Shown: in pieces, positions 6,783-26,088 of the stretch
How positions within the stretch are numbered: position 1 is the stretch's first letter
Layout of the letters: each line of letters starts with the position of its first letter
Assembly: GCA_046705025.1 (NCBI GenBank)
Contig: JBJKQU010000043.1
Coordinates: 22,611-86,610, forward strand
Length of the DNA: 64,000 bases
Reading direction: 5' to 3'
From: Candidatus Kryptoniota bacterium
Lineage (GTDB): Bacteria; Bacteroidota; Ignavibacteria; Kryptoniales; JAKASW01
Made by a program: the position numbers and the translations under genes
Notes under the pieces: generated by a model
Told to the model about the DNA's origin: nothing
The model's input: only the letters and a program-made list of their open reading frames with translations
Databases searched by the model: none

Positions 6783-6820
6783 CTATCTCTCCTTTTCACT
6801 TCAGGGTTGTTCCCAATGGT

Positions 6821-7810: not shown

Positions 7811-7846
7811 CTACTTTAACCTTGTAGCCGAATGGGCGGCTCGTTA

Positions 7847-8248: not shown

Positions 8249-8370
8249 CTCGCCTTTGTTTTTCATTTTTTTTGGTAAACCTACCTCAGAACCACTTCTC
8301 GGAGCATGACATGATCTACCGGTAGCAATTGGTATTAAAAAGACGCACCTCCCTTTAACTGCAAGTTGTA

Positions 8371-9297
8371 TCAATCTTCTTCGACTTTCAGAAATTCCTC
8401 CAGTTCTTTCAAGGTAGGCATCGAAGCTTGGGCTCCCTTTCTGGTGACCGAGAAAGCGGCGACCGAGTTTGCGAAAGCAACTGCTTTCTCGAGAGAATTG
8501 CCGGCGCTCAGGGAAAACGCCAGTGACCCGTTGAAGGCATCGCCCGCACCGGTTGTGTCGATTGTCTTGACACTTATAGAGCCGTAGGACTGGTTTCCGG
8601 AACCGTTAACCAGTATCGCGCCTTTATCTCCTACGGTCACGATCACATTCCTGACTCCTTTCTCGAGCAGTTTAGCAGCTGCCTTCCCAAGGCTCTCATC
8701 GTCGACGATTTTGACACCGGACAGCATCTCGCATTCCGTCTCGTTAGGCGTGAGAATATCGACAAACCTGTAGATTGTATCGGGAAGCATTCTGGCCGGA
8801 GCAGGATTGAGAATAGTCATGGCCCCATTTTCCCTGGCAAGGCGCAACGCTGTAACGACCGTTTCCAGAGGGATTTCCAGCTGGAGAAGTACAACCTTAG
8901 CCCTCTTGAAAGTGTCTGAGAGAGCCGCCAGATCGTCCGGGAGTAGCTTCATGTTGCTGCCTGATACAACCGTAATCTCGTTTTGTCCGTTTTCATCTAC
9001 AAGAATCAGCGCCACCCCTGTAGAAGCCGATTGGTCCACGAGGACATGTTCGGTGTTCACCTCATCGCGCCTGAGACTCTGAAGAAGATTTTCCCGGTAA
9101 ACATCGCTTCCCATCTTTGCAATGAACTCGACCTTTCCACCGAGTTTAGCGCAGCAAACGGCCTGATTCGCTCCCTTCCCTCCCGGGTACATCGCAAAGT
9201 CATTACTCAGTACGGTCTCACCGGGCCTCGGAAAGCTTCCGATTCTTGCGACAAGATCCATATTTGCACTCCCGACAACAAGTACAGCCTCACTCAA
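8371..9297 (-). CDS. rbsK: Ribokinase (PfkB family)
   Basis: 308 aa with GGKGANQAV and TGAGDAFNG signature motifs plus the NETE motif. Confidence 0.85.
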   Translation of the reverse strand: MSEAVLVVGSANMDLVARIGSFPRPGETVLSNDFAMYPGGKGANQAVCCAKLGGKVEFIAKMGSDVYRENLLQSLRRDEVNTEHVLVDQSASTGVALILVDENGQNEITVVSGSNMKLLPDDLAALSDTFKRAKVVLLQLEIPLETVVTALRLARENGAMTILNPAPARMLPDTIYRFVDILTPNETECEMLSGVKIVDDESLGKAAAKLLEKGVRNVIVTVGDKGAILVNGSGNQSYGSISVKTIDTTGAGDAFNGSLAFSLSAGNSLEKAVAFANSVAAFSVTRKGAQASMPTLKELEEFLKVEED

Positions 9298-9309
9298 TTT
9301 TCTCTCTCC

Positions 9310-12300
9310 TCACTTCACATCAAGTCTGTAAACCGGTTCGAATACTATTCTTGGACAGGACAATAAGCCAGACGGACTCTTTACGCCCTCCAGGATATTG
9401 ATGAGTGTGTTTGTTACTCTCAGCTCTATGGTATTCCTGCCAGGCCTAACAAGGGAAGAAATCTCGAGCCTGTATGGATGCCACGGAATTGTGACAGGGC
9501 TAATGTCGTTTATGATGACTTCGAGCACGTCCTCCCCGCAATCTGCCTCCAGGAACAGTCGTCCCGCAAGATACTTTCCCGGTATCGTGACTTCGGTCTT
9601 GTAAATTCCGGTGCCTGAGAAAAATGGGAGTCCTTGCAGGGTCCAGTTCTTGTAAAAGATCGAGGTGGGAGGATTTGAGAGGTGAAATTGCCCCTCGCGC
9701 TCGGTAACACCGAATCTGCCGGCGATCTTGAGAAGATCCAGTATGCCGTCAGTCCTTTTCCGGACTATGAGATTCACGGCGACACTATTTTTGCCGGTCT
9801 GCAGGTAGCGCTGTATGTCCACTTCCTTGATCTCCGCATCCAGCCAGCTGCGCTTCCCGCTCTGCTTGACTTCACTTCCGTTGACGTACAGCTTGAATGA
9901 GCTCCCGCTGAATCCGTCAATCAGCAGCCTCGTGTTTTGGGGCATGTCGTCGGCCGCAAAAGACGTTCTGTACCACAGGCTGACAGGGTAAGTCTCCTTG
10001 TCTCGCTCCTGTGGCAGCTGCATTTCCCATGCACCGTTCGTGACTGATAGCCACCCGGTATCGTCAAAATTAGGCTGAGCGAAAGTCTCCGCCCCTCCAT
10101 CTGTCGTGTTCAGAGACATCCTCCAATGTCCGATCACCAACACGTTGTCCTGCTCGGTTGTGAAAGCAGCGCCCTTCCCCATGGAGATCGGTTTCAACTG
10201 CTTGATCGGCGGCAACCTCTTTTTGACGACCGATTTGCCGTTTGTATATTCAACCGAAACCGGGGCCTTCGAAGCCGAGGAGCCGACGATACCCGAACCA
10301 TCGAATGCGGTAATATCCAGGTCCGTTTTGACAAGGTGGCGTTTGTTGATCTCCCCCTTGAGGACAATCACCTTCGACTCGGAAGAAGCAAAGCTGAGTG
10401 TCACATACATTCGCTCGTTCTTCACATCGAAGACGGTCAGCGGGATCGTTTCACCGGTAGCGGCGTCCCACAATTCCGGTTGCGCCACCGTCTCGAACGA
10501 GATTTCGACTTTACTTCTCGCCGTCTTGCTTGTATTCACAAGGAAATAGACATTGTGCCCGTCTTTTCTTCTGTGAAGGTAGAATACGTTTTCATCCGAT
10601 ATAGTCACGTCTGGAGTGATGCATTTCGAGATGGCTTTCTTCAACCCATCGCGAGAGTCGTAACTATGAAGGCCGGCTCCTTTGAAGAGGAAGGCCTTGC
10701 CGCGCGAATTCTTGTAAACCGTTCCCTTCCCGGAATTCCCGTGCTTTCCAAAGTCGGCAAGGAGCTTCACAGGGTCAGCGGCAAAGAGCTTACCCACCTG
10801 CTTCGCGTCGCCGTCCGCCGGGCTGTCCACAAATTCTGCCGGAAGAATGGTATCGGCGATAATATTTCCGCCCGACTTGAGAAAGCTGTCAAGAACTCCA
10901 TACGTAGACCTGCGGATGTGCGTGATAGGAGGCAAAATCAGCAGCGAGTATTCTTCATCGGCAATCCTTATCTTCCCCTTCTCAATCCTTGCCTGCGACA
11001 GCCTTTCCTCGTCAATGAAGTCGAAATCATAATGAAGCCTCAGCAGGGTGTCTGTTAGATAGTCGAAGTCCGACTCGATGACGTTCCCGACGGCTGTCCT
11101 TTCCTGCGGGACGTAGTTCGTCCATATACTCGTAAGAGGGTACAAAATGAGGATTTTGGCGACATGTGTTCCGCCGGTCAACAGATGGCTTAATCTGGCG
11201 GAATAGTCCGTAAAGCGGTCGTAATATTTCCACCATGTATGATGATAAAACTGCGAGGGCGGCCAGTCGCGCTTCCGCTCGCCTTCGATGGAGTAGTGAT
11301 ATCCGTGGTTATTGAAGAGATTCACCCCAAGGACATATTCCCAGTTCAAAATCCATTTCATCCTTTCCAGCGAGCAGTCCCAGTACGTGCCGCCCATCGA
11401 TTCGCAAAGGAGCCTCTTGCTGCCGAATAGGTGAGCCGCAGAGCTTGCCAGCTTAAGCGCTACGTGCTGGTCCGGCTCCTTCTCGGTGCCGATCTTCGGG
11501 TAGAGGTGATCGACTCCGACAATGTGCATGTGCTTCAAATGCTCGAACAGGTTTCCTTCACATCTGGCGTGCAATCTGATCCATTCTTCGAAGAGTAGGT
11601 GACCGGTAAAGATCACGCCGTTGTCGTCGCACCATTTTCTTATCTTGCCGTAATAGCTTTCGGAGTACTGCTCCGTAAGGGTCGTCCAGAAATCATACCT
11701 GATCTTCGCAGTCTTCCCGCCCATGCTGGCAAACAACGCCGGAAGATACGGGCGCAAGTCATAACCTCGCCTTTCTCTGAACACTTTGAACATCTTGCCC
11801 GTCCAGGGTATGACGTAATTGTCAAGCCCCACGTGGTAATAGTGCATGGCGGGTTCATCCGTATAAAAGCCGGGGACGGTTTTCCCAAACTCCTGGCCCA
11901 CCGCTGATTTGTACTTCTCATGCGTGAGCTCGATGAATTTCTCCGTGGACTCGGGGTCCAAAGCATCGATGTAGTAAGGCACCTCCTTTTGCAGGAAGTA
12001 GAGCAAACGCCACTTTCCGGGAGGGGCCTCCCACGGAATGATCTTTTCGAACGAAAGGTTCTGTGTCAGATCTATAGGGTTCAGTATCCCATTCTGAAAC
12101 TCCTCCTCGGTGCATCCGAATGCCGCGATGGGGTATGAATCTCCGGTGTTGACGTACCTGTTGTCGGTAGCCTCGAGGAAATTGAAAAGCGGGCCGTCCA
12201 CTCGAAGCGCCACAAGCTCGAGATACTTCTGTCTCAGGTGCGGGAATTTCGTGGGGACCTGTCGCTCTGCCGTGCCGCTCGGCCAGTTCATCTCGTCGTA

Positions 12301-12579
12301 CACCCAGGCGTCAATCCCGATTTCTTTTGCCTTGCTGACGGCGAATTTGACCTTCTTAAACCACGCCTCGGAAAGATAAGGGACCTTCAACCCGAATCTC
12401 CCGTGGATAAAAATCCCGGGAACCCCTTTGCTATGATACTCTCTCAGCTGCCACTCCATCTCTTCCTCGTCCATCTCCCCGTTCCAGAACCAGAATGGCA
12501 GAATACCGAGTTCGCGCGGCGGCTTTTTGAATGTCTCTCTTCCTAACTCTGCACCTTCAAGCAGTTTGTTTATATCCAT
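9310..12579 (-). CDS. Large cytoplasmic glycoside hydrolase, tentatively GH106-like (alpha-L-rhamnosidase-type) with C-terminal galactose-binding-like domains
   Basis: 1089 aa with no signal peptide. The N-terminal motif LGILPFWFWNGEMDEEEMEWQLREYHSKGVPGIFIH is typical of the GH106-type family as I recall it. The beta-rich C-terminal third resembles sugar-binding jelly rolls. Family call is from memory only. Confidence 0.6.
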   Translation of the reverse strand: MDINKLLEGAELGRETFKKPPRELGILPFWFWNGEMDEEEMEWQLREYHSKGVPGIFIHGRFGLKVPYLSEAWFKKVKFAVSKAKEIGIDAWVYDEMNWPSGTAERQVPTKFPHLRQKYLELVALRVDGPLFNFLEATDNRYVNTGDSYPIAAFGCTEEEFQNGILNPIDLTQNLSFEKIIPWEAPPGKWRLLYFLQKEVPYYIDALDPESTEKFIELTHEKYKSAVGQEFGKTVPGFYTDEPAMHYYHVGLDNYVIPWTGKMFKVFRERRGYDLRPYLPALFASMGGKTAKIRYDFWTTLTEQYSESYYGKIRKWCDDNGVIFTGHLLFEEWIRLHARCEGNLFEHLKHMHIVGVDHLYPKIGTEKEPDQHVALKLASSAAHLFGSKRLLCESMGGTYWDCSLERMKWILNWEYVLGVNLFNNHGYHYSIEGERKRDWPPSQFYHHTWWKYYDRFTDYSARLSHLLTGGTHVAKILILYPLTSIWTNYVPQERTAVGNVIESDFDYLTDTLLRLHYDFDFIDEERLSQARIEKGKIRIADEEYSLLILPPITHIRRSTYGVLDSFLKSGGNIIADTILPAEFVDSPADGDAKQVGKLFAADPVKLLADFGKHGNSGKGTVYKNSRGKAFLFKGAGLHSYDSRDGLKKAISKCITPDVTISDENVFYLHRRKDGHNVYFLVNTSKTARSKVEISFETVAQPELWDAATGETIPLTVFDVKNERMYVTLSFASSESKVIVLKGEINKRHLVKTDLDITAFDGSGIVGSSASKAPVSVEYTNGKSVVKKRLPPIKQLKPISMGKGAAFTTEQDNVLVIGHWRMSLNTTDGGAETFAQPNFDDTGWLSVTNGAWEMQLPQERDKETYPVSLWYRTSFAADDMPQNTRLLIDGFSGSSFKLYVNGSEVKQSGKRSWLDAEIKEVDIQRYLQTGKNSVAVNLIVRKRTDGILDLLKIAGRFGVTEREGQFHLSNPPTSIFYKNWTLQGLPFFSGTGIYKTEVTIPGKYLAGRLFLEADCGEDVLEVIINDISPVTIPWHPYRLEISSLVRPGRNTIELRVTNTLINILEGVKSPSGLLSCPRIVFEPVYRLDVK

Positions 12580-12650
12580 TAAATTTCCTCCTAATAAGGA
12601 CTCTGAAGTTCTATCTTCCGTACAAATTTATCTTCCCGGAACCCCTTTCG

Positions 12651-13640
12651 TCAAAAGTTCACCATTACCGTTATCCGATTCGGCGACTCCAGATAAGTAT
12701 ATTGTGTATATGCATAATCCAGTTCGAGATGCAGTCCCGATACTCTTGTCTTTAGGCCGAGACCGAGGGACAGATTTCCCTCGGTATAGTTGAATCGGTA
12801 TCCTGCCCTAAGAGAGAGAAAATTGTCGAAGACATATTCTCCACCCAAGTCGAGCCTTTCCGTGTAGTCGTTTGTATGCAGCGCTTCCGCACTTATTGTT
12901 ACTCTGTTGACCTTACCGAAATTCAGGAAGGCATTATTGCTTCCCACGAGACCGAACGATGCCCCGATGCGGAAGACCAGCGGAATCTCATATCCCGCCG
13001 GATTGTTGCTGTTTGACATAAACTTTACGGTGCCGGCAAAATTCTGGGCACTCATTGCTACGTGAATCCCTTTGTAGCCGACATTGTAAAGGGTACCGAC
13101 GTCAAAAGCCAGCGTGCTTGTGCCGTAAGTGAAAAGTGTCTCCTTCAGGTACTTTGCGCCGACCCCGATAGACAACTGATCGGTGAAGTCGTGTGAGTAA
13201 GCCAGGCCAAGCTGTACATCCCCGCCTGTAAATGTGTTGCCGGTTCGAGTATCGTTTGAACCACCGGGGATCGTAGTAAGTGCCTCGGGGATGTTTCCGT
13301 ATCCAAGTGACGCATAATCTATCGCAAATACGCCGATCTCGTCGACCCTGAAGCCGGCAGCACCGGCAAAGTAGTTCATCCCGGCAAACCAGGACGCAAA
13401 ATCGAACGAAGCCTGCGCTCCGGAAACCCCAGTCAGACCTGCCGGATCCCAGAAAACGGAATTGATATCGTGGACAGAGGCTATACTTGCTTCACCGATT
13501 GCAGCCTGTCTGGCTCCGATTCCGATCTTAACGAACTGGAACGCCGTTCTGCCGCCTCTGTTGAAACTCTGGGCGTGGGCCGATGCACAAGCAAAAACGA
13601 CGGCGGAAGTTAAAATGGCGAAAACAAAATTCTTGTTCAT
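12651..13640 (-). CDS. PorV/PorQ-like outer-membrane beta-barrel protein
   Basis: Start taken at the internal ATG 13640, giving the signal peptide MNKNFVFAILTSAVVFACASAHAQ. The N-terminal signature TAFQFVKIGIGARQAAIGEASIA...VFWDPAGL matches the PorV/PorQ family pattern. The rest shows alternating beta-strand composition. Confidence 0.55.
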   Translation of the reverse strand: MNKNFVFAILTSAVVFACASAHAQSFNRGGRTAFQFVKIGIGARQAAIGEASIASVHDINSVFWDPAGLTGVSGAQASFDFASWFAGMNYFAGAAGFRVDEIGVFAIDYASLGYGNIPEALTTIPGGSNDTRTGNTFTGGDVQLGLAYSHDFTDQLSIGVGAKYLKETLFTYGTSTLAFDVGTLYNVGYKGIHVAMSAQNFAGTVKFMSNSNNPAGYEIPLVFRIGASFGLVGSNNAFLNFGKVNRVTISAEALHTNDYTERLDLGGEYVFDNFLSLRAGYRFNYTEGNLSLGLGLKTRVSGLHLELDYAYTQYTYLESPNRITVMVNF

Positions 13641-13732
13641 AATCCACCTTGCACTTCTGATTCTCCCTACTGTCATAGGCTAGTTAAGTGTCTTCGCCCT
13701 CAACGGGCAGCACACAATATTGGTCGTCTCAT

Positions 13733-15982
13733 TCATCGAATTATCATCAATTTTCCGGTGAAGGATTTGTTCAACCCCGGTGTCGTCGATTGGACGTTGT
13801 AAATGTACAGACCCGGTGCCACCAACAGCCCTGAATCGCTCTTCTGATCCCAGTCCTCGGTTCCGTATTCATTGCCCTGGGCATCCGGGCCATGAACGAG
13901 CGTACGGATCAGGTCTCCCATCACAGTGTATATCCTGATAACACAATTTGCAGGGAGATTTCTGAACTGGACCTGAAACGGACTATTTATGCCGAAGCTT
14001 CTGGTTGCACTGCCATATACATATGGATTGGGGACGACATAAATATCAAAGGAAGTCACGGGCCCGGCAGCCGGAGAAGCTGGAGCGACGTAATTGTAGT
14101 CGCCGTTCTGCAGTTCAGGCAGACTGTCGACAACCGTACCGTTGGCAGAGGTCCAGGGCGACGGATGATTCCAATAAGCAGCAACGTAATAGCCGTACTT
14201 CGCGCCGAACTGCACGGTCGTGTCGCGGTATTCATACAAGCTGAGCGAGGGATTCCAGTATTGGCTGAACTGAGACTTGGGGATATCGGCTATCAAGTTC
14301 CAGGCGGCCCCGCGGAAAGTCGAAGGCTGCGTGTCGCTGACATACTGGAAGTCGGTCGACCTGTAGACTTTGTACCCGTCCACATCATCCGCTCCGTTGA
14401 ACCACGCATGTCCGGCACCGTCCTTTATGGACGTGTTCTCTGCAAGCTTGTCCCATGTAACCGCTATTGCTGCTCTCTGAGTGCCGACAGAAGCGTTCAC
14501 AGCGTTGACATGTGGGCCCGGTGGCGGAGACGGTACATTGGCTGCGAGGGGTATCCCGTCCACTGTCGCGCCCAATCCCCATGAGATGGCTTTTCTGGCA
14601 TTTGCCGCGTTCCGTTCGCTCGCGGCTATCGTGCTGTCGGGGAACCAGTGATTCGGGTCCCCGACAATGACCTCATGATAATCCATCACACCTGCTATCT
14701 CTGCCCAGATTATACGGACGGAGTCTCCGGGCGCAAGTGTATAGGGGCCATAGCTCATTACATAGAAATTCAACCTGTTGCCTTTGTTCCCAAGCGCGGC
14801 TTGAGTGTCTGGTGTGGTTGCGTATTGATAGAACGTCTGTTTGCTCACTCCGCTGGATAGCCGGAAAAATTCCAGGTCTAAGTCCTTCCCCTGGAAAGTG
14901 CCTCCCTTGTGCGAGTCTATTCTCCAGAAATCCGGGGTCATGACTTTCCTGGGCGTACCTCCTGTCGGACTGGCATACAGGCATTGCCACCCGAAAGCGG
15001 CCGGACTCTCGAGTTCATTTCCGAACTTCTGTTGCCAGGCATCATTCGGCTTGAGCGGAAATGGATCCCACCAGTAAAGCGGGGCCGCCCCGCCATTGTA
15101 GTTAGTAGAGAAGAAGAGAGTATTGTCGTCGGTGTGATGATAGTAATCGTGATAAGAGCCGGGCTGCCAGCCGAACCCTCCCGCCTGAATTGCCGTGAGC
15201 TCGGAATGGAAGTTTATCTGACTCTTGGTAGATACCGATATACCCGAACTGAGTGTGAAAACCACACCCTTAAGCGTCTGCGGCAGGAAATTCGGCACCA
15301 CTTCCTGTGTAGCGTTAGAAACAATTTGTCCGGTGTTCTTGAACGTGCAGTCGTAGATGATGAAGTCTCTATACCCCGGGAAACTCCAGTCGTAGGTTCT
15401 TCTGGTTATAGTTATCCCGACGTCTGTGTTCCAGGTGGCAGTGCTCATCTCTTCAGGCAAATCGGGGTTGTAATTTGCAGTATCTACGGCGTTTTCCGTC
15501 AGGACTATGGGAGGCCTGACCGATGCAACGCCGTAAGTGTTATCCTGAAGTCCGGACAAATAGTCCTCGTATGCGACGTGAGTCGGGGTATAAGAGGGCG
15601 GCAGGCCCGGTTCTTCCATCCCCGGCACGCAGATCCAAAGTCCGCTCCTGAAGTTGTGGAAGTTACAGTTTTCGTAAGTGTCGACGGCGTCTTCTTCGTT
15701 TCCAACAGGCTGGTTATATCCTGGAAATCCGGGGAACATCCCCAGCGGTGCCGGTGTAAGAAAGTCCCATGCGCCAAGGTTCCCTATCCAGCCGTCATTA
15801 AACACGTCTTCCCATAATTGTCCTCTCTCAAGCCAGACTTCTTGCGTTAACTGGCCGTACGCCAAGTTCGACAGGCCCAATACAACCGCCAAGATCAGGA
15901 AGTATACAAAGCGTGATGGAGGTGCCGCCAAACGCGTTCTTGCGCTCGATTCTTTCCCTCTGTTGATACGTCTTACCTTCAT
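13733..15982 (-). CDS. Secreted 749-aa beta-rich protein with a C-terminal T9SS/FlgD-Ig-like sorting domain
   Basis: Signal peptide (FVYFLILAVVLGLSNLAYGQ). C-terminal about 95 aa: YVVPNPYVYG...FRNLPANCVIRIYTVMGDLIRTLV...WDQKSDSGLLVAPGLYIYNV...GKLMIIR. No recognisable catalytic motif. Confidence 0.6.
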   Translation of the reverse strand: MKVRRINRGKESSARTRLAAPPSRFVYFLILAVVLGLSNLAYGQLTQEVWLERGQLWEDVFNDGWIGNLGAWDFLTPAPLGMFPGFPGYNQPVGNEEDAVDTYENCNFHNFRSGLWICVPGMEEPGLPPSYTPTHVAYEDYLSGLQDNTYGVASVRPPIVLTENAVDTANYNPDLPEEMSTATWNTDVGITITRRTYDWSFPGYRDFIIYDCTFKNTGQIVSNATQEVVPNFLPQTLKGVVFTLSSGISVSTKSQINFHSELTAIQAGGFGWQPGSYHDYYHHTDDNTLFFSTNYNGGAAPLYWWDPFPLKPNDAWQQKFGNELESPAAFGWQCLYASPTGGTPRKVMTPDFWRIDSHKGGTFQGKDLDLEFFRLSSGVSKQTFYQYATTPDTQAALGNKGNRLNFYVMSYGPYTLAPGDSVRIIWAEIAGVMDYHEVIVGDPNHWFPDSTIAASERNAANARKAISWGLGATVDGIPLAANVPSPPPGPHVNAVNASVGTQRAAIAVTWDKLAENTSIKDGAGHAWFNGADDVDGYKVYRSTDFQYVSDTQPSTFRGAAWNLIADIPKSQFSQYWNPSLSLYEYRDTTVQFGAKYGYYVAAYWNHPSPWTSANGTVVDSLPELQNGDYNYVAPASPAAGPVTSFDIYVVPNPYVYGSATRSFGINSPFQVQFRNLPANCVIRIYTVMGDLIRTLVHGPDAQGNEYGTEDWDQKSDSGLLVAPGLYIYNVQSTTPGLNKSFTGKLMIIR

Positions 15983-16003
15983 ATCGCAACCTCTATCTTT
16001 TAC

Positions 16004-18826
16004 CTAAAGTTGAATGAACGCCCCGAGCACTATGGAGCGGGGTAAATTTTCATACATTGCCAGGGGTGATATAGGTGAACCATTGGCATTCATTGTCGGT
16101 ATGTACTTAAAGCCGCTTTCCGCGAACTTAGCCTGTTCGGCAAGAGGTGCCTGCTCGAAAGTGGAAAGATCGAGCCACTTGTCATTGAACACGTTGTCAA
16201 CTTCCAGGTAGACTCCCACCTTATCGCTGTTGCTGAACAGTGTGAAATCTTTTTCGATACGCATGTCACCGTTCTTGTACGCGGGTCTGACGTACTTGTG
16301 GCCGTTGTATACAAAGTAATCCTGAAGCAATTCCGGGTTGGCGAAAATAGCCTTCCATTGAAATGACAGGCTGAGATCGCTCAGCAATCCGTCGAAGATA
16401 TGTAGACCTTTCGGCGTCTTGTAGTAGAGTCCGAATTTGAGGATCGGATCGCTATACTCGATGAAATCTCCGCTCGGCGAGTATTTGTCACCGGTCGGAC
16501 TTATGACGCTTGGCGCTCCACTGAGTCCATTGATTGCCAAGTCGGTTGTATAATTCACGTAGCCCCAGGTTGTTCCCCAGGATTCATCGGAATAGAGTTT
16601 ATTCAGCGATATCTCAACTCCACGTACATCCGCGTAGTCTCCATTGCCGTTGGTGGCGTAGACTCCCAACGGGGTGGAGACGGTTACTATCCTGATCGTG
16701 TTGGAAATATCTTTGTAGTAACCGGTTACGTCCAGGTCGATCAAATTCGCAAAGTTGCGCTCAATGCCGACTTCGATATCGATCGTTTTCGATGGCTTCA
16801 ACAGCCTGTTGCCGAGAACCCACGGGTAGGTCGTTCCGTTGATAATGAACGTCGTCAGGCTTCCCTGCTGCTCAGACGGGCTGCTCCCTTCCCCGTAGTC
16901 TCCAAAGGGCCCGCGCTCAAAGAACCAACCATATGAGAAGTGCAGCACTGTCCACTCATCTATGGGATGGGAAATTCCGAGCCGGGGGCTCAACTGCGAG
17001 AACAGGGGTGCTTTGCTGGTCGGTCCCACCAGAGGATCGAAGAGGCTGTCGTAGACCGGGGTGTTCGGATCGTAGAAATCCCACCTCAATCCTGCGTTCA
17101 TAATCATGCCTCCGAGTTCTAGTTTAGTCTCCAGGTAAGCGGCACCTTGAAAGGGGTTGTATATGTGTTGGTCCGTTCTATCCGGCAATTTGGAAATATC
17201 ATCGTGATTCAGGTTGTAATAGTCGAAATGAATCCCCGTTTTGAAATTCCACTTGGTGTTGATTTGGCTGGCGAAATAGGCATTCAGCGTCCAGTTGGTA
17301 TTGCTGTCGTTGTAACGGTAGTAATAGCCGGTGGTGTGGTATCCAATGTTGTCCTCATAGGCACCGATAATGGGGTTGCCGAGGGAATCAACCGCTCTCA
17401 GATTGTCGGTAGTGGGACCCGTTGCCGCGAACCCGATCGGGTCTCCCGGGAACGTGTTCACCTCCCTGACAGCATGCACCTTGGAAATCTGCACCTCATA
17501 CATCGTGGACGAGTTGAGGACTTGAGAGAACTTCAGCTGTTCATAATCATCCAGATTTTTAGGCAACCCTGGAAAATCGTAGTAAGCATATCTCGAATTG
17601 ACCCCGTAATTCAGGGCATAGAAATTGTCGGTTATTCCTCCGAATCCCCATCCGGTCAGATTGGTGGCATACATGCCGGAAAACAGAAGCTTCATATTGT
17701 GACCGAATTCATAAGATACATTGCCGGTGAAGTTTGTAATAATGCCAACCTTCCTGAATGCGTTGCCGTAGGTCGGGGCTTCTGAGAGGTACTTCCCCGT
17801 CAGAAAGAAATGCATTCCTTTAACGAGCGGAACAGGTCCGCCAAAGCTGCTCTCGATCTGGTAAGTGGGTGTCTGTGTATAGTTCGTAAGAGGTTGGTGA
17901 GTCTGCAGGTAGTTCTGATAAGCCTGCTCCGGCGTCCAGATGCAAAGCGGACTCGTACCGGGGTTTCCGTTAGGGTCCACCCATTGATCCGGATACTGTA
18001 CCCACCACTGGAGATGGCGTGCATGAGTGTTATCCCAGTATAAAGGACTGCTGAGATCGTATAATGACGGCCCCCAGTTAGGGTTATGCGGCGGAGTGAG
18101 TCGGGCCTCTGTATAGAACGTATACTTACTCCCGCCTTCCCTGGTAATGATATTGACGATGCCGGACTCAGCCTGCCCATATTCTGCGTTGAACGGCCCC
18201 GTAATAACCTGGACTTCCTTTATTGAACTTAGGTTTATGTCGGTATAGGGGTTTTGGTTGAGCGGATTTCTGAGCCTCGCTCCGTCTACCATGAAAGAAA
18301 CCTCGGAAATCGGCCTGCCCCTCATCGTCATCACTCCGTTCATCTCGTCAATGCTTGGCAGCGAAGATAGCACCTGATTGAAGGTTGACACCGGTCTTGT
18401 TTGGATCTCTTTTGCGGGGACTGTCAGCTGTGTGGCGGTGATGTCCTTCTGTACGGGCGGTCTGGTAGCTTCAACGACAACCTCATGGACATTCACGTTG
18501 CTCGCTTGCAGACTGAAATTGACGTTCGTCGTCAAATCCGGAAGTACTCTGGCGTTCTTAACAAGCTCAGGTGTGTAACCGACCAGACTTGCTCTGAGAG
18601 AATACGTACCCGTAGGTATATTGGCGATAAAATAATTTCCATTAAGATCGGTGGATGCGCCGATAGTTGTTCCGACCAGGAGAACGTTTACACCAACCAG
18701 CGGCTCTTTCGTCTTCGCGTCAATGACCTTGCCCGAAATCTTCCCTGTACTTCCGGCGAGCGCCTGGCCGAAGGACAGCAGCAGTACCACGATGGAAATG
18801 AGAAGCGGGAAGCCTGCAAGGCTCAT
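16004..18826 (-). CDS. TonB-dependent receptor with N-terminal carboxypeptidase-regulatory-like domain (SusC-like layout)
   Basis: CarboxypepD_reg motif GKISGKVIDAKTKEPLVGVNVLLVGTTIGASTDLNGNYFIANIPTGTYSLRASLVGY, then a plug domain (MRGRPISEVSFMVDGARLRNP...FNAEYGQAESGIVNIITR) and a long barrel. Start set at ATG 18826, which is followed by a signal peptide. The ORF-track start at 18961 would add 45 aa and overlap the ADH stop as ATGA. Confidence 0.8.
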   Translation of the reverse strand: MSLAGFPLLISIVVLLLSFGQALAGSTGKISGKVIDAKTKEPLVGVNVLLVGTTIGASTDLNGNYFIANIPTGTYSLRASLVGYTPELVKNARVLPDLTTNVNFSLQASNVNVHEVVVEATRPPVQKDITATQLTVPAKEIQTRPVSTFNQVLSSLPSIDEMNGVMTMRGRPISEVSFMVDGARLRNPLNQNPYTDINLSSIKEVQVITGPFNAEYGQAESGIVNIITREGGSKYTFYTEARLTPPHNPNWGPSLYDLSSPLYWDNTHARHLQWWVQYPDQWVDPNGNPGTSPLCIWTPEQAYQNYLQTHQPLTNYTQTPTYQIESSFGGPVPLVKGMHFFLTGKYLSEAPTYGNAFRKVGIITNFTGNVSYEFGHNMKLLFSGMYATNLTGWGFGGITDNFYALNYGVNSRYAYYDFPGLPKNLDDYEQLKFSQVLNSSTMYEVQISKVHAVREVNTFPGDPIGFAATGPTTDNLRAVDSLGNPIIGAYEDNIGYHTTGYYYRYNDSNTNWTLNAYFASQINTKWNFKTGIHFDYYNLNHDDISKLPDRTDQHIYNPFQGAAYLETKLELGGMIMNAGLRWDFYDPNTPVYDSLFDPLVGPTSKAPLFSQLSPRLGISHPIDEWTVLHFSYGWFFERGPFGDYGEGSSPSEQQGSLTTFIINGTTYPWVLGNRLLKPSKTIDIEVGIERNFANLIDLDVTGYYKDISNTIRIVTVSTPLGVYATNGNGDYADVRGVEISLNKLYSDESWGTTWGYVNYTTDLAINGLSGAPSVISPTGDKYSPSGDFIEYSDPILKFGLYYKTPKGLHIFDGLLSDLSLSFQWKAIFANPELLQDYFVYNGHKYVRPAYKNGDMRIEKDFTLFSNSDKVGVYLEVDNVFNDKWLDLSTFEQAPLAEQAKFAESGFKYIPTMNANGSPISPLAMYENLPRSIVLGAFIQL

Positions 18827-18957
18827 ATGAAAAATACGTTGGCGACCCGAGCCGGAAAATGGGTCAGAACCCTTATGTGCAAACATAGAATTACCTCCTT
18901 TGAACACCGCACCGCAAACGGCTTCGTCGGAAAAACTGATTTCGGTACAAACAGTTT

Positions 18958-19908
18958 TCATATCGCAATCACACCCTTCACAAAACCTTCATTCTTTTTG
19001 GAGGCCGTCTCGAAACCGTGATTGATTTCATCGAGTGAAAACTTATCGGTGACGAGCTGTTCCATCCTGAGTTTTCCGTCTTCCATGAGTCTCAACCCAA
19101 TATTCATCCCCTCAACGTAGATCCTGGGGCTCCTCACATGTCCGTTTATGATTGTGAAGGCCATCCAGTTCCAGTACCCCCAATTCACGCTTCTCGGCTT
19201 GCCCTGGTGGAAACCGAACACCTCCAGCTTTCCCTCCATCTTCACGAGGTCGGTTACGAGATCGAGCGTGGCCTGCCTGCCTGCCGCTTCGACACCGATG
19301 TCCACGCCGTTTCCGTTCGTCAACTCGTGAACTGCAGACTTTACATCTGCCTCTTTAGGGTTCACGACGTGCGTGGCGCCCAGCCCGGCAGCGAGGTCGA
19401 GAGAGCTTTTCCTTGTATCGATGGCAATAAGCCTTCCCACCCCACGGGCTTTAAAAATCTGCAACATGATCAGCCCCATGAAGCCGCACCCCACGATTGC
19501 GACGGCATCGTTCAATTGTGGGTCAGCTTTGCGCACACCATTGGTAGAGCAGGCTATCGGTTCACCGAGCGCATATTCGAACGGGGTGTCCTGCTTCAGC
19601 TTGTAGGCATATTCCGCCTTGATAGCCAGGTACTCTGCATAACCCTTGCCGTCTGCCCAGACTGCTACATGATCGCCAGGAGCAAGGCCTTTTACTCCCG
19701 CTCCCACGGCTTCCACAATTCCAGCAACCTCATGCCCGATGAATCGAGGAAATTCCAGACCGACGGCTTTGCCTTCCCACATGTCCAATTCCGAAGTGCA
19801 GATTCCGCATGTCTTCGTCTTGATCAGTATCTCGTCAGCTTCATACGTCGGCATCGGAACGGACTGAATAGAGAAGTTTCCTGGTTTCTCAAGAATTGCA
19901 GCTTTCAT
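18958..19908 (-). CDS. Zinc-dependent alcohol/polyol dehydrogenase (MDR family)
   Basis: 316 aa. GHEVAGIVEAVG zinc-ligand motif, the CGICTSE region and a GxGxxG-like VGCGFMG. Confidence 0.85.
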   Translation of the reverse strand: MKAAILEKPGNFSIQSVPMPTYEADEILIKTKTCGICTSELDMWEGKAVGLEFPRFIGHEVAGIVEAVGAGVKGLAPGDHVAVWADGKGYAEYLAIKAEYAYKLKQDTPFEYALGEPIACSTNGVRKADPQLNDAVAIVGCGFMGLIMLQIFKARGVGRLIAIDTRKSSLDLAAGLGATHVVNPKEADVKSAVHELTNGNGVDIGVEAAGRQATLDLVTDLVKMEGKLEVFGFHQGKPRSVNWGYWNWMAFTIINGHVRSPRIYVEGMNIGLRLMEDGKLRMEQLVTDKFSLDEINHGFETASKKNEGFVKGVIAI

Positions 19909-19938
19909 TCAAATTCTCGCTTTGCTTTTTTTTTGCCC

Positions 19939-19979
19939 GGGGTCGCCTGCTCAGAACGAGGAAGCCGGCAGGCGGCCCC
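19939..19979. terminator. GC-rich hairpin between the T9SS cargo gene and the ADH gene
   Basis: Arms GGGGTCGCCTGC (19939-19950) and GCAGGCGGCCCC (19968-19979), 12 bp with one mismatch and a 17-nt loop. On the plus strand it is flanked by T9 (19926-19934) and ATTTTT (19980-19985). Confidence 0.4.
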
Positions 19980-20015
19980 ATTTTTCACGCGTTGATATTT
20001 ATCAGAGTATGATCC

Positions 20016-21815
20016 TCATTTCAGGAGAATCATCTTGTTCGTCGCAATGGTCGTCCCGTTTGCAGAGAGTCTGTACAAATAGACCCCGCTGCTCATATTG
20101 CCGGCATTCCACACGACCGAATACTGACCCGGTGTTCTCATCGCATTCACAAGCGTTGCGACCCTCTCACCGAGAACATTGTACACCGTGATCGACACAT
20201 GGGCATCTTTCGGCACCGAATAGTTTATCACGGTCGAAGGGTTGAACGGGTTTGGGTAGTTCTGACTGATCCGGAAACCTGTGGGTACCTTGTTGGTGCG
20301 AGGCGGCTCGTTGATTGCAGTAACAGCACCGTTCAGAGTCAGATGGATGAGACCGAAACTCATCGCGTTGTTCATCACATCTCCGCCTGCCGTTCCGGGA
20401 TTGCTGCTGTCCACGACGCTCCAGGAATAATACGCATAAGCGCCATCGCCGCCGTTTCCGCTCGCATAACTGGAATCAGCGGATCCTCCTCCTATATTGA
20501 ATCCGACCTCATTGTTCAGGACGGCCTGTGGCAGATAGATGGCACTTTCGGTTTTCCATATGTAGTTCACTGTGTCGATAGACTCTGCTATGTACGCAAA
20601 TCCCGTGTCCGAAGCATTGACACCCCAATTCAGCGTGATCCCGTCTTTCCAGATTTTGTAAGCCGTCGCTCCTTTGTCGGGGGCATTCTGCGGCCATCCG
20701 GCATAGCCGTTGTCAATATCCGTGTCGTCAGCGTGGGTACCATCGATGCCGACAAGAATCTGGTTACCCTGCCACGGATTGCCGGCGGTGCCCCAATAAA
20801 ACGGGAGGTATCCCTGGAAGTATGTGTAAACGAAGAGCGTATCCTGAGTCCACAGCACCTTTGCCGTGTGCGTGACATCGACAGTCGGGTGCCCGGAGTA
20901 TGAACCGTTCCAGTATTTGGTGAGGTTGAAACTCGGCGCGTTCTTCCATGCGGCCTCCGTTCCGAGATTGTTGAGGTTAATTGTCCCGGGAGCGACATAC
21001 GGAATGCTGGCGGTTGCTCCTTCAGCGGTTGCGCCGTAGGCGGGAGCGCCAGTCAGGGAAAGTGTTCCGAAGCTCATGGCGTTGTTCATGACGTCTCCGC
21101 CTGCTGTTCCAGGATTGCTTGTGTCTACAACTCCCCACGAGTAGTAGGCATATGAACCGTCACCGCCGTTTCCGCTGGCATAACCCGAGTCCGCAGATGC
21201 TCCGCCTATGTTGAATCCGATTTGATTGCCGGGAGCAGCCTGGGGGAGGTATATGGCGCTCTCGGTCTTCCATATGTAGTTTACCGTGTCGATCGATTCG
21301 GCTACATACGCAAAACCGGTATCGGACGCACTCACGCCCCAGTTAAGAGTAATTCCTCCCTTCCAGATCTTATACGTGGTCGCACCTTTGTCCGGCGCAT
21401 TCTGAGGCCATCCGGCATAGCCGTTGTCGATATCCGTGTCGTCAGAGTGTGTACCGTCGATGCCGATAAGCACCTGGTTACCCTCGTATGGCGCTCCCGA
21501 GTCTCCCCAATAGAAAGGCAGGTACCCCTGGAAGTACGTGTAAACATAGAGCGTGTCCTGAGTCCACAACACTTTTGCATTAGCGGTCACATCGACAGTG
21601 GGGTGACCCGAATAGGAACCGTTCCAGTATTGTGTCAGGTTGAAACTCGGAGCGTTCTTCCAGGCCGATTCCGTTCCGAGATTATTAATGTTGATTGTGC
21701 CCGGAGCAACATACGGTACGTTCACGTTGACCCCGTTGCCGTATGATGTCTGCGCTGAAGCTTGTCCTACACTGAAGAGCAACAAGCAAATGCTCAAGAC
21801 AATAGAGGTCTTCAT
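20016..21815 (-). CDS. Secreted protein with two tandem CBM9-like(?) domains and a type-A T9SS C-terminal sorting domain
   Basis: Signal peptide MKTSIVLSICLLLFSVGQASAQ. Two 238-aa-period repeats. C-terminus NYPNPFNPSTVINYSVPKDAHVSITVYNVLGERVATLV...SGVYLYRL...KMILLK is the classic Por_Secre_tail pattern. AGGAGG lies 6 nt upstream of the ATG. The CBM9-like call is tentative. Confidence 0.7.
   Translation of the reverse strand: MKTSIVLSICLLLFSVGQASAQTSYGNGVNVNVPYVAPGTININNLGTESAWKNAPSFNLTQYWNGSYSGHPTVDVTANAKVLWTQDTLYVYTYFQGYLPFYWGDSGAPYEGNQVLIGIDGTHSDDTDIDNGYAGWPQNAPDKGATTYKIWKGGITLNWGVSASDTGFAYVAESIDTVNYIWKTESAIYLPQAAPGNQIGFNIGGASADSGYASGNGGDGSYAYYSWGVVDTSNPGTAGGDVMNNAMSFGTLSLTGAPAYGATAEGATASIPYVAPGTINLNNLGTEAAWKNAPSFNLTKYWNGSYSGHPTVDVTHTAKVLWTQDTLFVYTYFQGYLPFYWGTAGNPWQGNQILVGIDGTHADDTDIDNGYAGWPQNAPDKGATAYKIWKDGITLNWGVNASDTGFAYIAESIDTVNYIWKTESAIYLPQAVLNNEVGFNIGGGSADSSYASGNGGDGAYAYYSWSVVDSSNPGTAGGDVMNNAMSFGLIHLTLNGAVTAINEPPRTNKVPTGFRISQNYPNPFNPSTVINYSVPKDAHVSITVYNVLGERVATLVNAMRTPGQYSVVWNAGNMSSGVYLYRLSANGTTIATNKMILLK
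20346..21719 (-). repeat. Intragenic tandem duplication (unit 714 nt / 238 aa, two copies)
   Basis: Copy 1 is aa 33-270 (21006-21719). Copy 2 is aa 271-490 (20346-21005). By-eye protein alignment is roughly 85 percent identical (VPYVAPGTININNLGTESAWKNAPSFNLTQYWNGSYSGHPTVDV... versus IPYVAPGTINLNNLGTEAAWKNAPSFNLTKYWNGSYSGHPTVDV...). Confidence 0.85.
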
Positions 21816-21928
21816 ACTTACTTCCTCCTAGGTTTTTGTTTTGTGTCACTGATTCGAATGACGCTTTTGCCTGTGAAAACGAAAAGCACTAAATCGTCCA
21901 TCTTACATTCCGTGTTGAATCCACTATA

Positions 21929-22762
21929 TCAATCCTTCAATCCTGAAAAGGTTATCCCTTTGATGAAATATTTCTGAGCAAAGAAGAAAATCGCCAGGAT
22001 TGGGACCGTGGCGGCGACGGAGGCTGCCATCAGTTTGTCCCATTCCGATGTGTAGCGATCTCGGAACACTGCGAGGCCCAGAGGCACAGTCCTCAGCGAC
22101 TGGGAATTGACCACTATTAGCGGCCACAGGAAGTCATTGAATGCCGCCATGAATGTGAAAACAGCGAGAGCTGCCAAAGCCGGCTTGGCCAGAGGAATGA
22201 TCACTCTCCACAGGACGCCCAACTTGCTGCATCCGTCGATATACGCAGCCTCCTCCAACTCCTTGGGTATCGTCATGAAAAACTGTCTCAGAAGAAACGT
22301 CCCAAAGGCGGAAGCCAGGCCGGGTATAATCAGGGCCTTGTAACTGTTTATCCAGCCCAGCCAATAGAGTATCATGAAGCTGGGAATCATTGTAACCTGA
22401 GGCGGAACCATCATCGTAGCCAGAAAAAGGAAGAAAAGCACATCGCGACCTTTGAACTTCAATCGAGCAAACGCAAATGCGGCAGTAGAACAAGTGATGA
22501 GCTGGCCCAGCGTTACGCAAACCGAGACGAAAATGCTGTTGAAGTAATACCTCCCAAACGGCGCCGCAGCGAAGGCGCGTATGTAATTGTCAAAGTGAAA
22601 CTTTGTCGGGAGAAAAGTCGGAGGCGTCTGGAGTATCTCACCCAGCGACTTGAATGAAGTGAGGATCATCCAAACGAAGGGTGCAACTGTAATCACCGCC
22701 GCAGCGTACACTACGACGTGCAGAAAACCGGACTTGACTATTTTTTTGGTCCTTGGCATCAC
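21929..22762 (-). CDS. Carbohydrate ABC transporter permease (MalG-like)
   Basis: 277 aa, six predicted TM segments, and the EAA-loop region ELEEAAYIDGCSKLGVLWRVIIPL. Confidence 0.9.
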   Translation of the reverse strand: MMPRTKKIVKSGFLHVVVYAAAVITVAPFVWMILTSFKSLGEILQTPPTFLPTKFHFDNYIRAFAAAPFGRYYFNSIFVSVCVTLGQLITCSTAAFAFARLKFKGRDVLFFLFLATMMVPPQVTMIPSFMILYWLGWINSYKALIIPGLASAFGTFLLRQFFMTIPKELEEAAYIDGCSKLGVLWRVIIPLAKPALAALAVFTFMAAFNDFLWPLIVVNSQSLRTVPLGLAVFRDRYTSEWDKLMAASVAATVPILAIFFFAQKYFIKGITFSGLKD

Positions 22763-22777
22763 AACTGTAGTTGTAGT

Positions 22778-23689
22778 TTAAGTGGCGAAATAAACGCGCT
22801 TCTTCATGAACCTGATTTGAATCAGAGTCAGAACGAATATCACAGCGAACAACACGTAGGCTATCGCTGATGCGTAACCCATGTCGAAAAACTTGAAAGC
22901 CTGTTCATAGATGTAGAACACAAGTACCTTGGTCGCACCCAGCGGGCCGCCCGAAGTCAGCACGTATACCAGATCGAAGACCTGGAAGGAACCGATCATG
23001 GACATTACCAGGATGAAGAAGGTCGTTGGAGCCAAGAGCGGGACGGTGATCTTCCAGAACTTGCGCCACGGGCCAGCGCCGTCGATCTGCGCCGCTTCGT
23101 AATATTGATCCGGTATCCCGTCGAGGCCCGCAGAGAAAAGAACCATGTTTATTCCCATCGTCTTCCACACTCCCATTACAATCAAGGCAACCATTGCGGA
23201 GGTGGGGTCATTCAGCCAGTTTATAGGCGGAACACCGAAAAAGTGGAGCACGTAGTTCAGGATTCCGAAATTTGGCTCGTAGATCCATCTCCAGATGACA
23301 GCCGCGGCGACGGGCGAGACGACTACTGGAGCGAAGAAAGCAGTGCGAAGGAACTTCTTTCCCACAAGCTTCTTACTGAGAAGCATTGCCGCACCGAGAG
23401 AGATGACCATATTTAGAGGCACTGTTCCAAGTGTGTATACGAAAGTGTTTTGCATTACCGACCAGAAATCGGCCGAAGTGAAGGCCCTGACGTAATTCTC
23501 AAGACCCACATAATGCATGCTCTGGCTGAACATGTTCCACTTCTGGAAGCTGAGAAAGAAAGAAAAAACGACCGGGAATAGGATGAACACGGAGAATAAG
23601 ATCATGGAGGGCGAAAGAAAGAAGAAGGCGCTCTTCCCGTCACCTTTTCTTCTGTTGCCTTTGACATTCCGCCCGATCCTCATTCGCAA
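22778..23689 (-). CDS. Carbohydrate ABC transporter permease (MalF-like)
   Basis: 303 aa with the EAA-loop region YYEAAQIDGAGPWRKFWKITVPL. Confidence 0.9.
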   Translation of the reverse strand: MRMRIGRNVKGNRRKGDGKSAFFFLSPSMILFSVFILFPVVFSFFLSFQKWNMFSQSMHYVGLENYVRAFTSADFWSVMQNTFVYTLGTVPLNMVISLGAAMLLSKKLVGKKFLRTAFFAPVVVSPVAAAVIWRWIYEPNFGILNYVLHFFGVPPINWLNDPTSAMVALIVMGVWKTMGINMVLFSAGLDGIPDQYYEAAQIDGAGPWRKFWKITVPLLAPTTFFILVMSMIGSFQVFDLVYVLTSGGPLGATKVLVFYIYEQAFKFFDMGYASAIAYVLFAVIFVLTLIQIRFMKKRVYFAT

Positions 23690-23741
23690 ATCTCACCTGC
23701 TGTCGATGATTGCCTTATCTCATCCCGATTTATATAGATGC

Positions 23742-25058: not shown

Positions 25059-25082
25059 TGATTCTCCTTCTCGTGCTAGTCG

Positions 25083-25937: not shown

Positions 25938-26026
25938 GATGCATGTCCTTCGCAAATGCACAACTGGGCCGGAAGCACAAGCACAAGCGGGCAATATTAG
26001 CAATATTGGGCACTTCTCCGTCCAGC

Positions 26027-26070
26027 GACGCAAACGTTTGTGCTAACCGAGAAAACTGTTAGGATGTCAA
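26027..26070 (-). promoter_or_regulatory. Candidate promoter plus LacI-type operator for the lipoprotein/ABC operon
   Basis: Minus-strand TTGACA (26065-26070), a weak -10-like TTAGCA (26041-26046) and the pseudo-palindrome GACGCAAACGTTTGTGCT (26027-26044). Its core CAAACGTTTG (26031-26040) is a perfect CG-centred 10-bp palindrome. Confidence 0.5.
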
Positions 26071-26088
26071 AAAAACATGTAATTCAGG

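Follow-up and report, generated by a model that had tools for sequence, protein, structure and literature searches.

How do TonB-dependent transporters capture their substrates in lineages that carry few or no SusD genes? The question is raised by three adjacent genes in the window analysed here, a 64,000-nucleotide stretch of a Candidatus Kryptoniota genome (assembly GCA_046705025.1, contig JBJKQU010000043.1, positions 22,611 to 86,610), which encode a TonB-dependent transporter, a predicted secreted protein of unnamed family (protein X) and a beta-barrel of the PorV/PorQ family. SusC/SusD is the textbook system of polymer uptake in Bacteroidota, and the prediction of polysaccharide utilization loci relies on SusD. 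Many lineages of the Fibrobacterota-Chlorobiota-Bacteroidota (FCB) group degrade polymers and possess a type IX secretion system (T9SS), with few or no SusD genes, and we know of no established mode of substrate capture by their transporters. The cassette appears to be an alternative, not yet described, to the SusC/SusD pair in nutrient capture, and we lean slightly towards an arrangement in which the T9SS exports X, an uncleaved tail keeps X on its cognate barrel, and X there captures substrate for the transporter.

The three proteins were searched against Pfam, NCBIfam (matches listed to E ≤ 0.1) and PDB sequences, and the folds of X and the barrel were compared by Foldseek using AlphaFold2 (AF2) models of the single chains.

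Gene order, conservation and duplication of the cassette

The first-pass annotation described three consecutive minus-strand genes within a sugar gene array, separated by 21 and about 92 nt, and the list of open reading frames (ORFs) with corrected starts bears this out. The longest-ORF starts of the transporter and the barrel are probably too far upstream; with the later starts, the gaps are 21 nt between transporter and X and 92 nt between X and barrel. The barrel start at M13 (13640) is that of a 100%-identical public protein of 329 aa (P0121), and the transporter signal peptide, MSLAGFPLLISIVVLLLSFGQALA, begins at M46 (start codon 18824..18826). The array is a LacI-headed, sugar-catabolic minus-strand block of ~26 kb (1054..27135). 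Scanning for promoters and terminators returned counts at or below shuffled expectation, with no intergenic terminator within the trio.

A scan restricted to one genome per species yielded 52 orthologous loci, the nearest in a Candidatus Kryptoniota metagenome-assembled genome (MAG; 85%). These loci span Kryptoniota, KSB1, Ignavibacteriota, Rhodothermales/Rubrivirga, Calditrichota, Marinimicrobia and unclassified Bacteroidota MAGs, and include the cultured Ignavibacteriota Melioribacter roseus (L039) and Rosettibacter primus (L038), with ~44% identity. Where enough flank was present, the gene upstream of X is the transporter in 50 of 51 loci, and the gene downstream is the barrel in 48 of 49, so the trio is syntenic in other genomes, being kept across at least six phylum-level lineages. 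It forms part of a larger unit conserved in order and strand, comprising a CBM9-like protein with a C-terminal sorting domain (CTD), a Zn-dependent dehydrogenase, the transporter, X, the barrel and a GH106-like enzyme, with the CBM9-like protein encoded two genes upstream; one locus (L003) is reduced to transporter, X, barrel and GH106-like enzyme.

Two orthologous loci have a different appearance. At L011:10010-12235, an X orthologue has neither transporter nor barrel within 10 kb upstream and 3 kb downstream. At L051:7148-13287, in an Ignavibacteria MAG, the cassette is split into several overlapping ORFs, the breaks being most likely long-read frameshift errors and not decay.

A profile search of X over 1.84 billion cluster representatives, in which the orthologues collapse to two clusters, retrieved 1221 distant relatives (cluster representatives at E ≤ 1e-10), mostly of 600-820 aa and of the same architecture, making this a large family without a Pfam or NCBIfam model. 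Paralogous loci were located by scanning metagenome contigs with the paralogue alignment, and adjoining ORFs were scored by orthologue-built hidden Markov models (HMMs), on which X paralogues reach 70-180 bits and orthologues 830-1260. With sufficient flank, the transporter stands in order in 32 of 45 cases and the barrel in 44 of 59, on one strand, with median gaps of 18 nt (transporter-X) and 15 nt (X-barrel). Departures from this order come almost entirely from tandem X pairs and from loci in which a second X gene follows the complete trio, ~3 kb downstream. The X paralogues fall into at least 14 groups under 45% identity. Pairwise-distance matrices of the three proteins from 65 non-redundant cassettes are closely correlated (Mantel r 0.98, 0.96 and 0.97; 0/2000 permutations reach these values), indicating that the three genes are duplicated together and diverge in step, with no exchange of partners. 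This co-divergence and the recurrent order at ~50 orthologous and ~45 paralogous loci together rule out chance adjacency.

The genes surrounding the paralogous cassettes vary. Marine loci carry a glycerophosphodiesterase (GDPD), a ceramidase-like protein and a sodium:solute symporter (SSF), while other groups adjoin GH63-like and GH2 enzymes with LacI, DUF6785/6784 or tetratricopeptide repeat (TPR) proteins. Such placement beside unrelated catabolic genes would be expected of a portable uptake module. No SusD-like family was present among the annotated neighbour clusters of paralogous cassettes. The marine paralogue group is assigned to Marinimicrobia/Fidelibacterota and KSB1 and includes clusters of 480-650 member sequences.

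Additional arrangements were observed among the paralogous loci. Tandem X genes without a barrel occur at L065:3-4218 and L131:3232-8454. In marine Marinimicrobia-type loci (L058-L074 and L085; for example L066:1-10262), a complete trio comes first, next a glycerophosphodiesterase or sodium:solute symporter and a ceramidase-like protein, and finally a second X gene lacking a transporter or barrel of its own. In 15 paralogous loci of several groups (among them L089:169-891, L078:1189-1896 and L063:2549-3268), the gene directly upstream of the transporter encodes a small outer-membrane beta-barrel of ~240 aa; it matches OMP_b-brl with 34.6 bits in L089 and could be a fourth member of the cassette. 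Between this small barrel and the transporter, some marine loci encode a 330-aa protein with a type-A CTD.

The TonB-dependent transporter

Judged from its sequence, the first protein is a TonB-dependent transporter, in which a Plug domain and a TonB-box-like motif, EVVVEA, precede a large predicted barrel. We take EVVVEA to be the TonB box from its consensus. The N-terminal domain aligns with the N-terminus of RagA (6sli). Direct matching of the barrel region is weak (TIGR01782, E 0.0013, residues 607-788), and PF00593 TonB_dep_Rec_b-barrel is present in the transporter orthologue of the reduced locus L003. Transporter orthologues are 42-84% identical (44+ loci).

The SusC-type layout initially assigned to this protein holds for its N-terminal part, with CarboxypepD_reg and Plug domains in order, and fails as membership of the SusC/RagA family, since TIGR04056 scores 79.6 bits against a cut-off of 368.25 and covers only its N-terminal 200 positions. 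No SusD/RagB gene was found directly downstream of the transporter, the gene in that position being X.

The body of protein X

More than 230 homologues of X were found, 53-94% identical and ~735 aa long, whose source names, where present, are mostly 'hypothetical protein'. X itself has no Pfam or NCBIfam family above cut-off, and comparison with PDB sequences gave nothing useful. The AF2 model (predicted local distance difference test, pLDDT, 75; predicted template modelling score 0.75) is nearly all beta, with a large sandwich body followed, after a PPPP linker, by an FN3-like domain and then by a second, C-terminal sandwich (residues 646-749); one paralogue carries the source name 'fibronectin type III domain-containing protein'.

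The first-pass annotation held that X is not SusD-like, having no lipobox and no helical or TPR-like composition, and this agrees with three lines of evidence. Cysteines occur only at positions 106, 118, 212, 334 and 680, leaving none before residue 106; SusD/RagB profiles gave no match at E ≤ 0.1; and the modelled fold is almost entirely beta. An identity as SusD is ruled out by the profile searches and the AF2 model. A match to SusD/RagB or to a characterised enzyme family was looked for in Pfam, NCBIfam and PDB sequences, and none was found.

Conservation is unevenly distributed along the chain. Residues 69-110 (15653..15778), within the N-terminal segment, reach a column identity of 0.75 and contain the motif NANFHNFRSG, yet are modelled with pLDDT of only 33-39. 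The N-terminal segment is a candidate partner-binding segment, of which residues 69-110 may fold only on a partner. When paralogues are compared, residues 176-225 and 401-425 and the tail are most conserved, whereas 76-175, 226-325 and 351-400 are variable and rich in insertions and deletions. A conserved chassis carrying variable segments fits a common docking frame with substrate-specific surfaces.

These same features bear on a different reading, in which X belongs to a new family of surface or secreted enzymes, acting for example on the polymer that the locus degrades, with the barrel as no more than its dedicated T9SS shuttle and the transporter importing the products without X serving as a SusD-like lid or handing substrate over. 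Such an enzyme would account for the many invariant charged or polar residues (R53, H109, E177, E178, K253, D351, R354, D356, E371 and others), for a cross-phylum identity near that of the neighbouring enzymes, and for nearest folds that come from carbohydrate-active enzymes. The fold matches are weak, with a template modelling (TM) score of ~0.2 between the X sandwich and the N-terminal beta-sandwich parts of GH94/GH149 phosphorylases and of dextran dextrinase, and their lengths and positions, as we map them, suggest accessory beta-sandwich parts without a catalytic domain. Foldseek with the whole model returned only non-catalytic beta-sandwich, FN3 and PorU C-terminal parts and no catalytic-domain match, and an identity as a known enzyme is ruled out by the Pfam, NCBIfam, PDB sequence and Foldseek searches. 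Moreover, paralogues lie beside chemically unrelated pathways (phosphodiesterase/ceramidase-like genes versus glycosidases), and the parts conserved among them are scaffold and tail, not one pocket-like segment. We consider an enzyme of a new family unlikely, though the likeliest of the alternatives.

The C-terminal tail of protein X

The tail of X is, by its sequence relationships, T9SS-CTD-like and fits neither type A nor type B cleanly. FlgD_ig is matched over residues 676-735 (E 0.0083, 16.5 bits), and the NCBIfam models of PorU and PorZ match through their C-termini (6.4e-6 and 3.9e-4, respectively). The tail also resembles the type-A CTD of the neighbouring CBM9 protein (BLASTP E 3e-4), Foldseek pairs X with the C-terminal part of PorU (6za2), and the motifs PNP...G.Y...K....-end are visible. 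The X of the window gave no match to TIGR04183, PF18962 or CHU_C at E ≤ 0.1. Among 20 paralogue tails, 14 match the PorZ model, nine TIGR04183 (E ≤ 0.01, best 3.2e-8) and three PorU, and CHU_C (PF13585, type B) scores 14.1-26.6 bits on ten X-family relatives, six of them at 24.6-26.6, with a cut-off of 27. Similarity to PorZ and PorU, both of which retain their tails, is at least as good as to the generic type-A model. The first-pass description of X as a beta-rich secreted protein with a sorting-type tail is consistent with the AF2 model, the signal peptide and the weak, below-cut-off FlgD_ig, PorU and PorZ matches.

The argument that a conserved tail implies a retained tail was dropped, as ordinary type-A cargo, used as a control, shows the same tail excess.

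The PorV/PorQ-family barrel

A PorV/PorQ signature had been noted in the third protein at the outset, and it is confirmed by the family model and by the predicted structure. NF033709 (PorV/PorQ family) scores 155.5 bits against a cut-off of 90, aligning residues 44-341 with model positions 2-326 of 326. The equivalog models remain below cut-off (PorQ NF033711, 102.5 versus 220; PorV NF033710, 51.4 versus 250; PorV2, 53.9 versus 325), with a higher score on PorQ than on PorV. On these profile scores, the barrel is a distinct subfamily and not the housekeeping PorV or PorQ. PorP/SprF profiles gave no Pfam or NCBIfam match at E ≤ 0.1. The best PDB sequence match is Flavobacterium johnsoniae PorV (6h3i_F). 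The AF2 model has 14 strands (pLDDT 84), and its best Foldseek match is 8gl6_F, PorV in the substrate-bound T9SS complex (TM 0.71, E 5e-14), followed by 6h3i_F (TM 0.70); TodX/FadL (TM 0.5-0.6) and BamG (TM 0.47) lie further behind. The sequence ends in ...VMVNF.

The barrel might instead be a FadL/TodX-type channel or accessory porin outside the T9SS, with X as ordinary type-A cargo of the housekeeping PorV, attached to lipopolysaccharide or released, and the genes co-regulated without forming a complex. The barrel does share the FadL superfamily fold (TodX TM 0.6, FadL ~0.5), has a weak Toluene_X match and falls under both the PorV and the PorQ equivalog cut-offs, and the marine paralogue cassettes adjoin lipid-related genes (GDPD, ceramidase-like). 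Its score above the PorV/PorQ family cut-off and its closer relation to PorV than to FadL/TodX, in sequence and fold alike, speak against this reading, as does its strict pairing with a CTD-bearing X, at gaps of few nucleotides and with co-divergence of r = 0.96, as for cognate cargo/shuttle pairs (PMC12618676). A porin or channel with an independently sorted X appears improbable.

Proposed function of the cassette

In the arrangement that we slightly favour, the transporter would import the substrate, and X would be made with a Sec signal peptide and no lipid anchor. Its CTD would not be cut by PorU for attachment to lipopolysaccharide; X would be held non-covalently by its own PorV/PorQ-family barrel encoded next door, in the manner of PorZ on PorQ, PorU on PorV and type-B cargo on adjacent PorP/SprF barrels. 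The beta-sandwich/FN3 body, placed beside the transporter, would then capture the substrate and hand it over, performing the job of SusD-like and other surface lipoproteins in Bacteroidota. In the window, the cassette would serve a LacI-controlled glycoside-catabolic operon with the GH106-like enzyme, an ATP-binding cassette (ABC) importer, ribokinase/RbsD and oxidoreductases. The data show what the parts are, their constant order and close spacing, their joint inheritance and divergence, and their occurrence in differing catabolic contexts; from these we infer T9SS export, tail retention, contacts with the barrel and the transporter, and binding by X. The surface tethering, substrate hand-over and SusD replacement suggested in the first-pass annotation belong to the same inferred functional reading. 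The retention of tails bound to cognate PorV-like barrels, and the linkage of cargo and shuttle genes, are established elsewhere (PMC10202324, PMC12618676). A type-A CTD protein in the operon of X and host lineages within the FCB group offer indirect support for X as a putative T9SS substrate.

Several observations weigh against this arrangement. X is 53-65% identical across phyla, like the neighbouring enzymes, which is unusual for a surface binding protein and could mean catalysis. The tail of X falls under every curated cut-off (type A, type B, PorZ and PorU), and its conservation relative to the body (0.64/0.54) is non-discriminating, type-A cargo of the same 28 loci giving 0.49/0.40. For a T9SS in the source genome, the type-A cargo encoded in the window is the sole evidence. 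After controlling for the divergence of the GH106-like enzyme and the dehydrogenase (33 orthologous loci), residual distances correlate at 0.48-0.62 between X domains and transporter, 0.31-0.39 between X domains and barrel, and 0.68 between transporter and barrel, with the tail-barrel pair not singled out by domain-wise rate covariation; these exploratory values (partial r 0.3-0.7) are suggestive only and could reflect shared outer-membrane constraints.

Comparison with known systems

The cassette resembles SusC/SusD (RagA/RagB) in that the gene for a surface partner directly follows that of a transporter with a CarboxypepD_reg-like domain, and in that the pair sits within regulated catabolic loci and has many paralogous copies with differing neighbours. 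It differs in the transporter, which stays under the SusC/RagA cut-off, and in X, which is all-beta, without lipobox or SusD match. It also has a third obligatory gene, the PorV/PorQ-family barrel, and X would be anchored by secretion tail and barrel, not by lipidation.

The PorZ-PorQ and PorU-PorV pairs each consist of a T9SS-exported protein whose C-terminal domain is retained and a PorV/PorQ-family barrel on which that protein is held (PMC10202324). The tails of X and of 14/20 paralogues match the PorZ C-terminus, some match PorU, and the best equivalog model of the barrel is PorQ. Unlike these pairs, neither barrel nor X reaches the equivalog cut-off of PorQ, PorV, PorZ or PorU, the body of X has no relation to PorZ or PorU, and the X and barrel genes adjoin a transporter in catabolic loci, outside the secretion machinery, in many paralogous copies.

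Type-B cargo such as SprB/SprF and PG1035/PorP has an adjacent dedicated barrel with specific pairing, the tail probably remaining uncleaved and the barrel serving as anchor (PMC10202324, PMC12618676, PMC9143113). X likewise adjoins its own PorV-like barrel, and paralogue tails reach 25-26.6 bits on CHU_C. In contrast to type-B systems, the barrel belongs to the PorV/PorQ family without a PorP/SprF match (E ≤ 0.1), the cargo are not adhesins, and the X-barrel pair is joined to a TonB-dependent transporter, mainly outside Bacteroidia/Flavobacteriia.

For the joint action of large barrel, small barrel and surface protein, BamA-BamG-BamH offers a structural precedent, in which a 14-strand FadL/PorV-like barrel packs against the large barrel and its extracellular loops hold the surface protein (PMC12578637). 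The two systems differ in the lipoprotein nature of BamH, in the function of the Bam proteins, which is to assemble outer-membrane proteins, and in the present barrel, which is much nearer PorV than BamG. This precedent suggests a further possibility, that the barrel is an assembly or stabilising partner of the transporter, as BamG is of BamA, with X capping the surface through the barrel loops and the tail being only structural. Structural neighbours of the barrel include BamG (9hiv_F, 9n2d_B and 9hjm_F), NCBIfam BamG is weakly matched (E 0.009), the FadL-like barrel of Bacteroidota BAM has both a large barrel and a surface protein as binding partners (PMC12578637), and the rate residuals of transporter and barrel correlate more strongly than those of any other pair (0.68). 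Against these stand the TM scores of 0.47 to BamG and 0.71 to PorV, and an X without lipid anchor that needs an export route, for which the CTD-like tail is the only candidate. We regard a BamG-like role of the barrel as very improbable. 8blw, among the Foldseek matches of the barrel, is a generic barrel match only.

Surface beta-rich binding proteins capture ligand for an adjacent transporter in BtuB-BtuG of Bacteroides and TbpA-TbpB of Neisseria. Those partners are lipid-anchored, unlike X, and involve neither a third barrel nor the T9SS.

No published description was found of a cassette combining transporter, CTD protein and PorV/PorQ-family barrel, in a literature search that left out subscription journals, so that an earlier description is possible. 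The cassette is not described in the literature covered, which included a 2023 review of T9SS effectors, a 2025 study of shuttle proteins and a 2026 review of bacterial glycoside transporters, nor mentioned in the Caldithrix and Melioribacter genome papers.

A broader generalisation is possible but rather doubtful, namely that the cassette is a phylum-spanning functional alternative to SusC/SusD, in which non-lipidated, T9SS-exported capture proteins would be tail-docked on a private PorQ-like barrel against the transporter. It would extend over the non-Bacteroidia FCB lineages, with the same degree of doubt: Ignavibacteriota, Kryptoniota, Calditrichota, KSB1, Rhodothermales and Marinimicrobia/SAR406, a clade abundant in the ocean. 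If true, the cassette would provide a genomic marker for uptake loci in SusD-poor phyla including SAR406, the principle of a cognate shuttle or anchor barrel would reach from adhesins and the attachment complex to nutrient import, and the T9SS would be a builder of nutrient-import machines, beyond a secretion route.

Features of the locus and surrounding genes

Table 1. Features of the cassette and adjoining genes; positions refer to the window and residues to the longest ORF.
Feature	Position	Strand	Basis and remarks
Transporter gene	16004..18961	-	985 aa as longest ORF; 940 aa from the probable start M46 at 18826
CarboxypepD_reg-like domain, residues 75-163	18473..18739	-	PF13715 CarbopepD_reg_2 7.5e-22; PF13620 1.7e-16
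TonB-box-like motif EVVVEA, residues 160-165	18467..18484	-	Read from sequence
Plug domain, residues 172-267	18161..18448	-	PF07715 1.9e-11, 44.8 bits versus cut-off 23.9
Presumed 22-strand barrel region, ~residues 290-985	16007..18094	-	Length; orthologues carrying PF00593
Protein X gene	13733..15982	-	ORF, 749 aa; founder of unnamed family
Signal peptide region of X, residues 1-43	15854..15982	-	Sequence; ...LGLSNLAYG before QL; without lipobox Cys
Conserved N-terminal segment of X, residues 46-110	15653..15847	-	Column identity 0.65-0.75
Large beta-sandwich body of X, residues 111-470	14573..15652	-	AF2, almost all strands
FN3-like domain of X, residues ~490-610	14153..14515	-	AF2; many Foldseek FN3 matches; after PPPP linker
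T9SS-CTD-like domain of X, residues 646-749	13736..14047	-	Weak profile, BLASTP and Foldseek matches
Barrel gene	12651..13640	-	329 aa from M13; longest ORF 12651..13676, 341 aa
LacI-family regulator, 316-aa protein, ABC sugar importer (binding protein and two permeases)	21929..27135	-	Head of array
Secreted protein with two CBM9-like repeats and bona fide type-A T9SS CTD	20016..21815	-	Profile matches
Zn-dependent dehydrogenase	18958..19908	-	ADH_N and ADH_zinc_N; directly upstream of transporter
GH106-like glycoside hydrolase, 1089 aa	9310..12579	-	PF17132 2.2e-40; directly downstream of barrel

The block runs from LacI through the 316-aa protein, the ABC importer, the CBM9/type-A protein, the Zn-dehydrogenase and the trio to the GH106-like enzyme. 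It continues with ribokinase, RbsD, an aldo-keto reductase, a clan GH-A-like TIM barrel and a ureidoglycolate-lyase-like protein, and ends with DUF6259, a GFO/IDH/MocA dehydrogenase and a xylose-isomerase-like TIM barrel. This ~26-kb order, from LacI to the xylose-isomerase-like TIM barrel, is kept in a Marinimicrobia genome and in most orthologous loci (L001, L002). The CBM9-like protein matches CBM9_1, and its tail exceeds the cut-offs of Por_Secre_tail (33.5 bits, cut-off 27) and TIGR04183 (37.6 bits, cut-off 23). Among PDB sequences, the GH106-like enzyme matches 6q2f ('glycoside hydrolase family protein') and 5mqm/5mwk; the latter entries were deposited under the name glycoside hydrolase family 2, sugar-binding, and we take them to be the GH106 enzyme BT0986. 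The ribokinase (TIGR02152, above cut-off) and RbsD adjoin the GH106-like enzyme, and a levoglucosan-dehydrogenase-like GFO/IDH/MocA enzyme with a TIM barrel gives a hint of an oxidative 3-keto-glycoside route. With a GH106-like enzyme, ribokinase/RbsD and oxidoreductases together, the gene content of the locus indicates no single substrate.

Four ORFs of the window have no Pfam family at E ≤ 0.001: 59826..62000 (724 aa), 49428..50867 (479 aa), 44430..45707 (425 aa) and 25083..26033 (316 aa), the last lying between the LacI regulator and the ABC binding protein. None of the four matched the X, barrel or transporter HMMs.

Beyond the block, a mannoside-type cluster (27365..39161) comprises a GH92 enzyme (27365..29695), a GH38 alpha-mannosidase (34519..37821) and a major facilitator superfamily sugar transporter (37833..39161), with a MacB/FtsX-type permease (30636..33065) and a 266-aa protein without Pfam match between GH92 and GH38. 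A rhamnose-related group (51247..58394) contains a GH78 alpha-L-rhamnosidase on the plus strand, a GH3 enzyme with PA14 insert and a RhaT-type rhamnose symporter. At 42643..49219, genes for a LolA-like protein, an ABC ATPase, a MacB/FtsX permease and a TPR protein accompany a LytTR two-component system, and this group may be a lipoprotein or peptide export unit.

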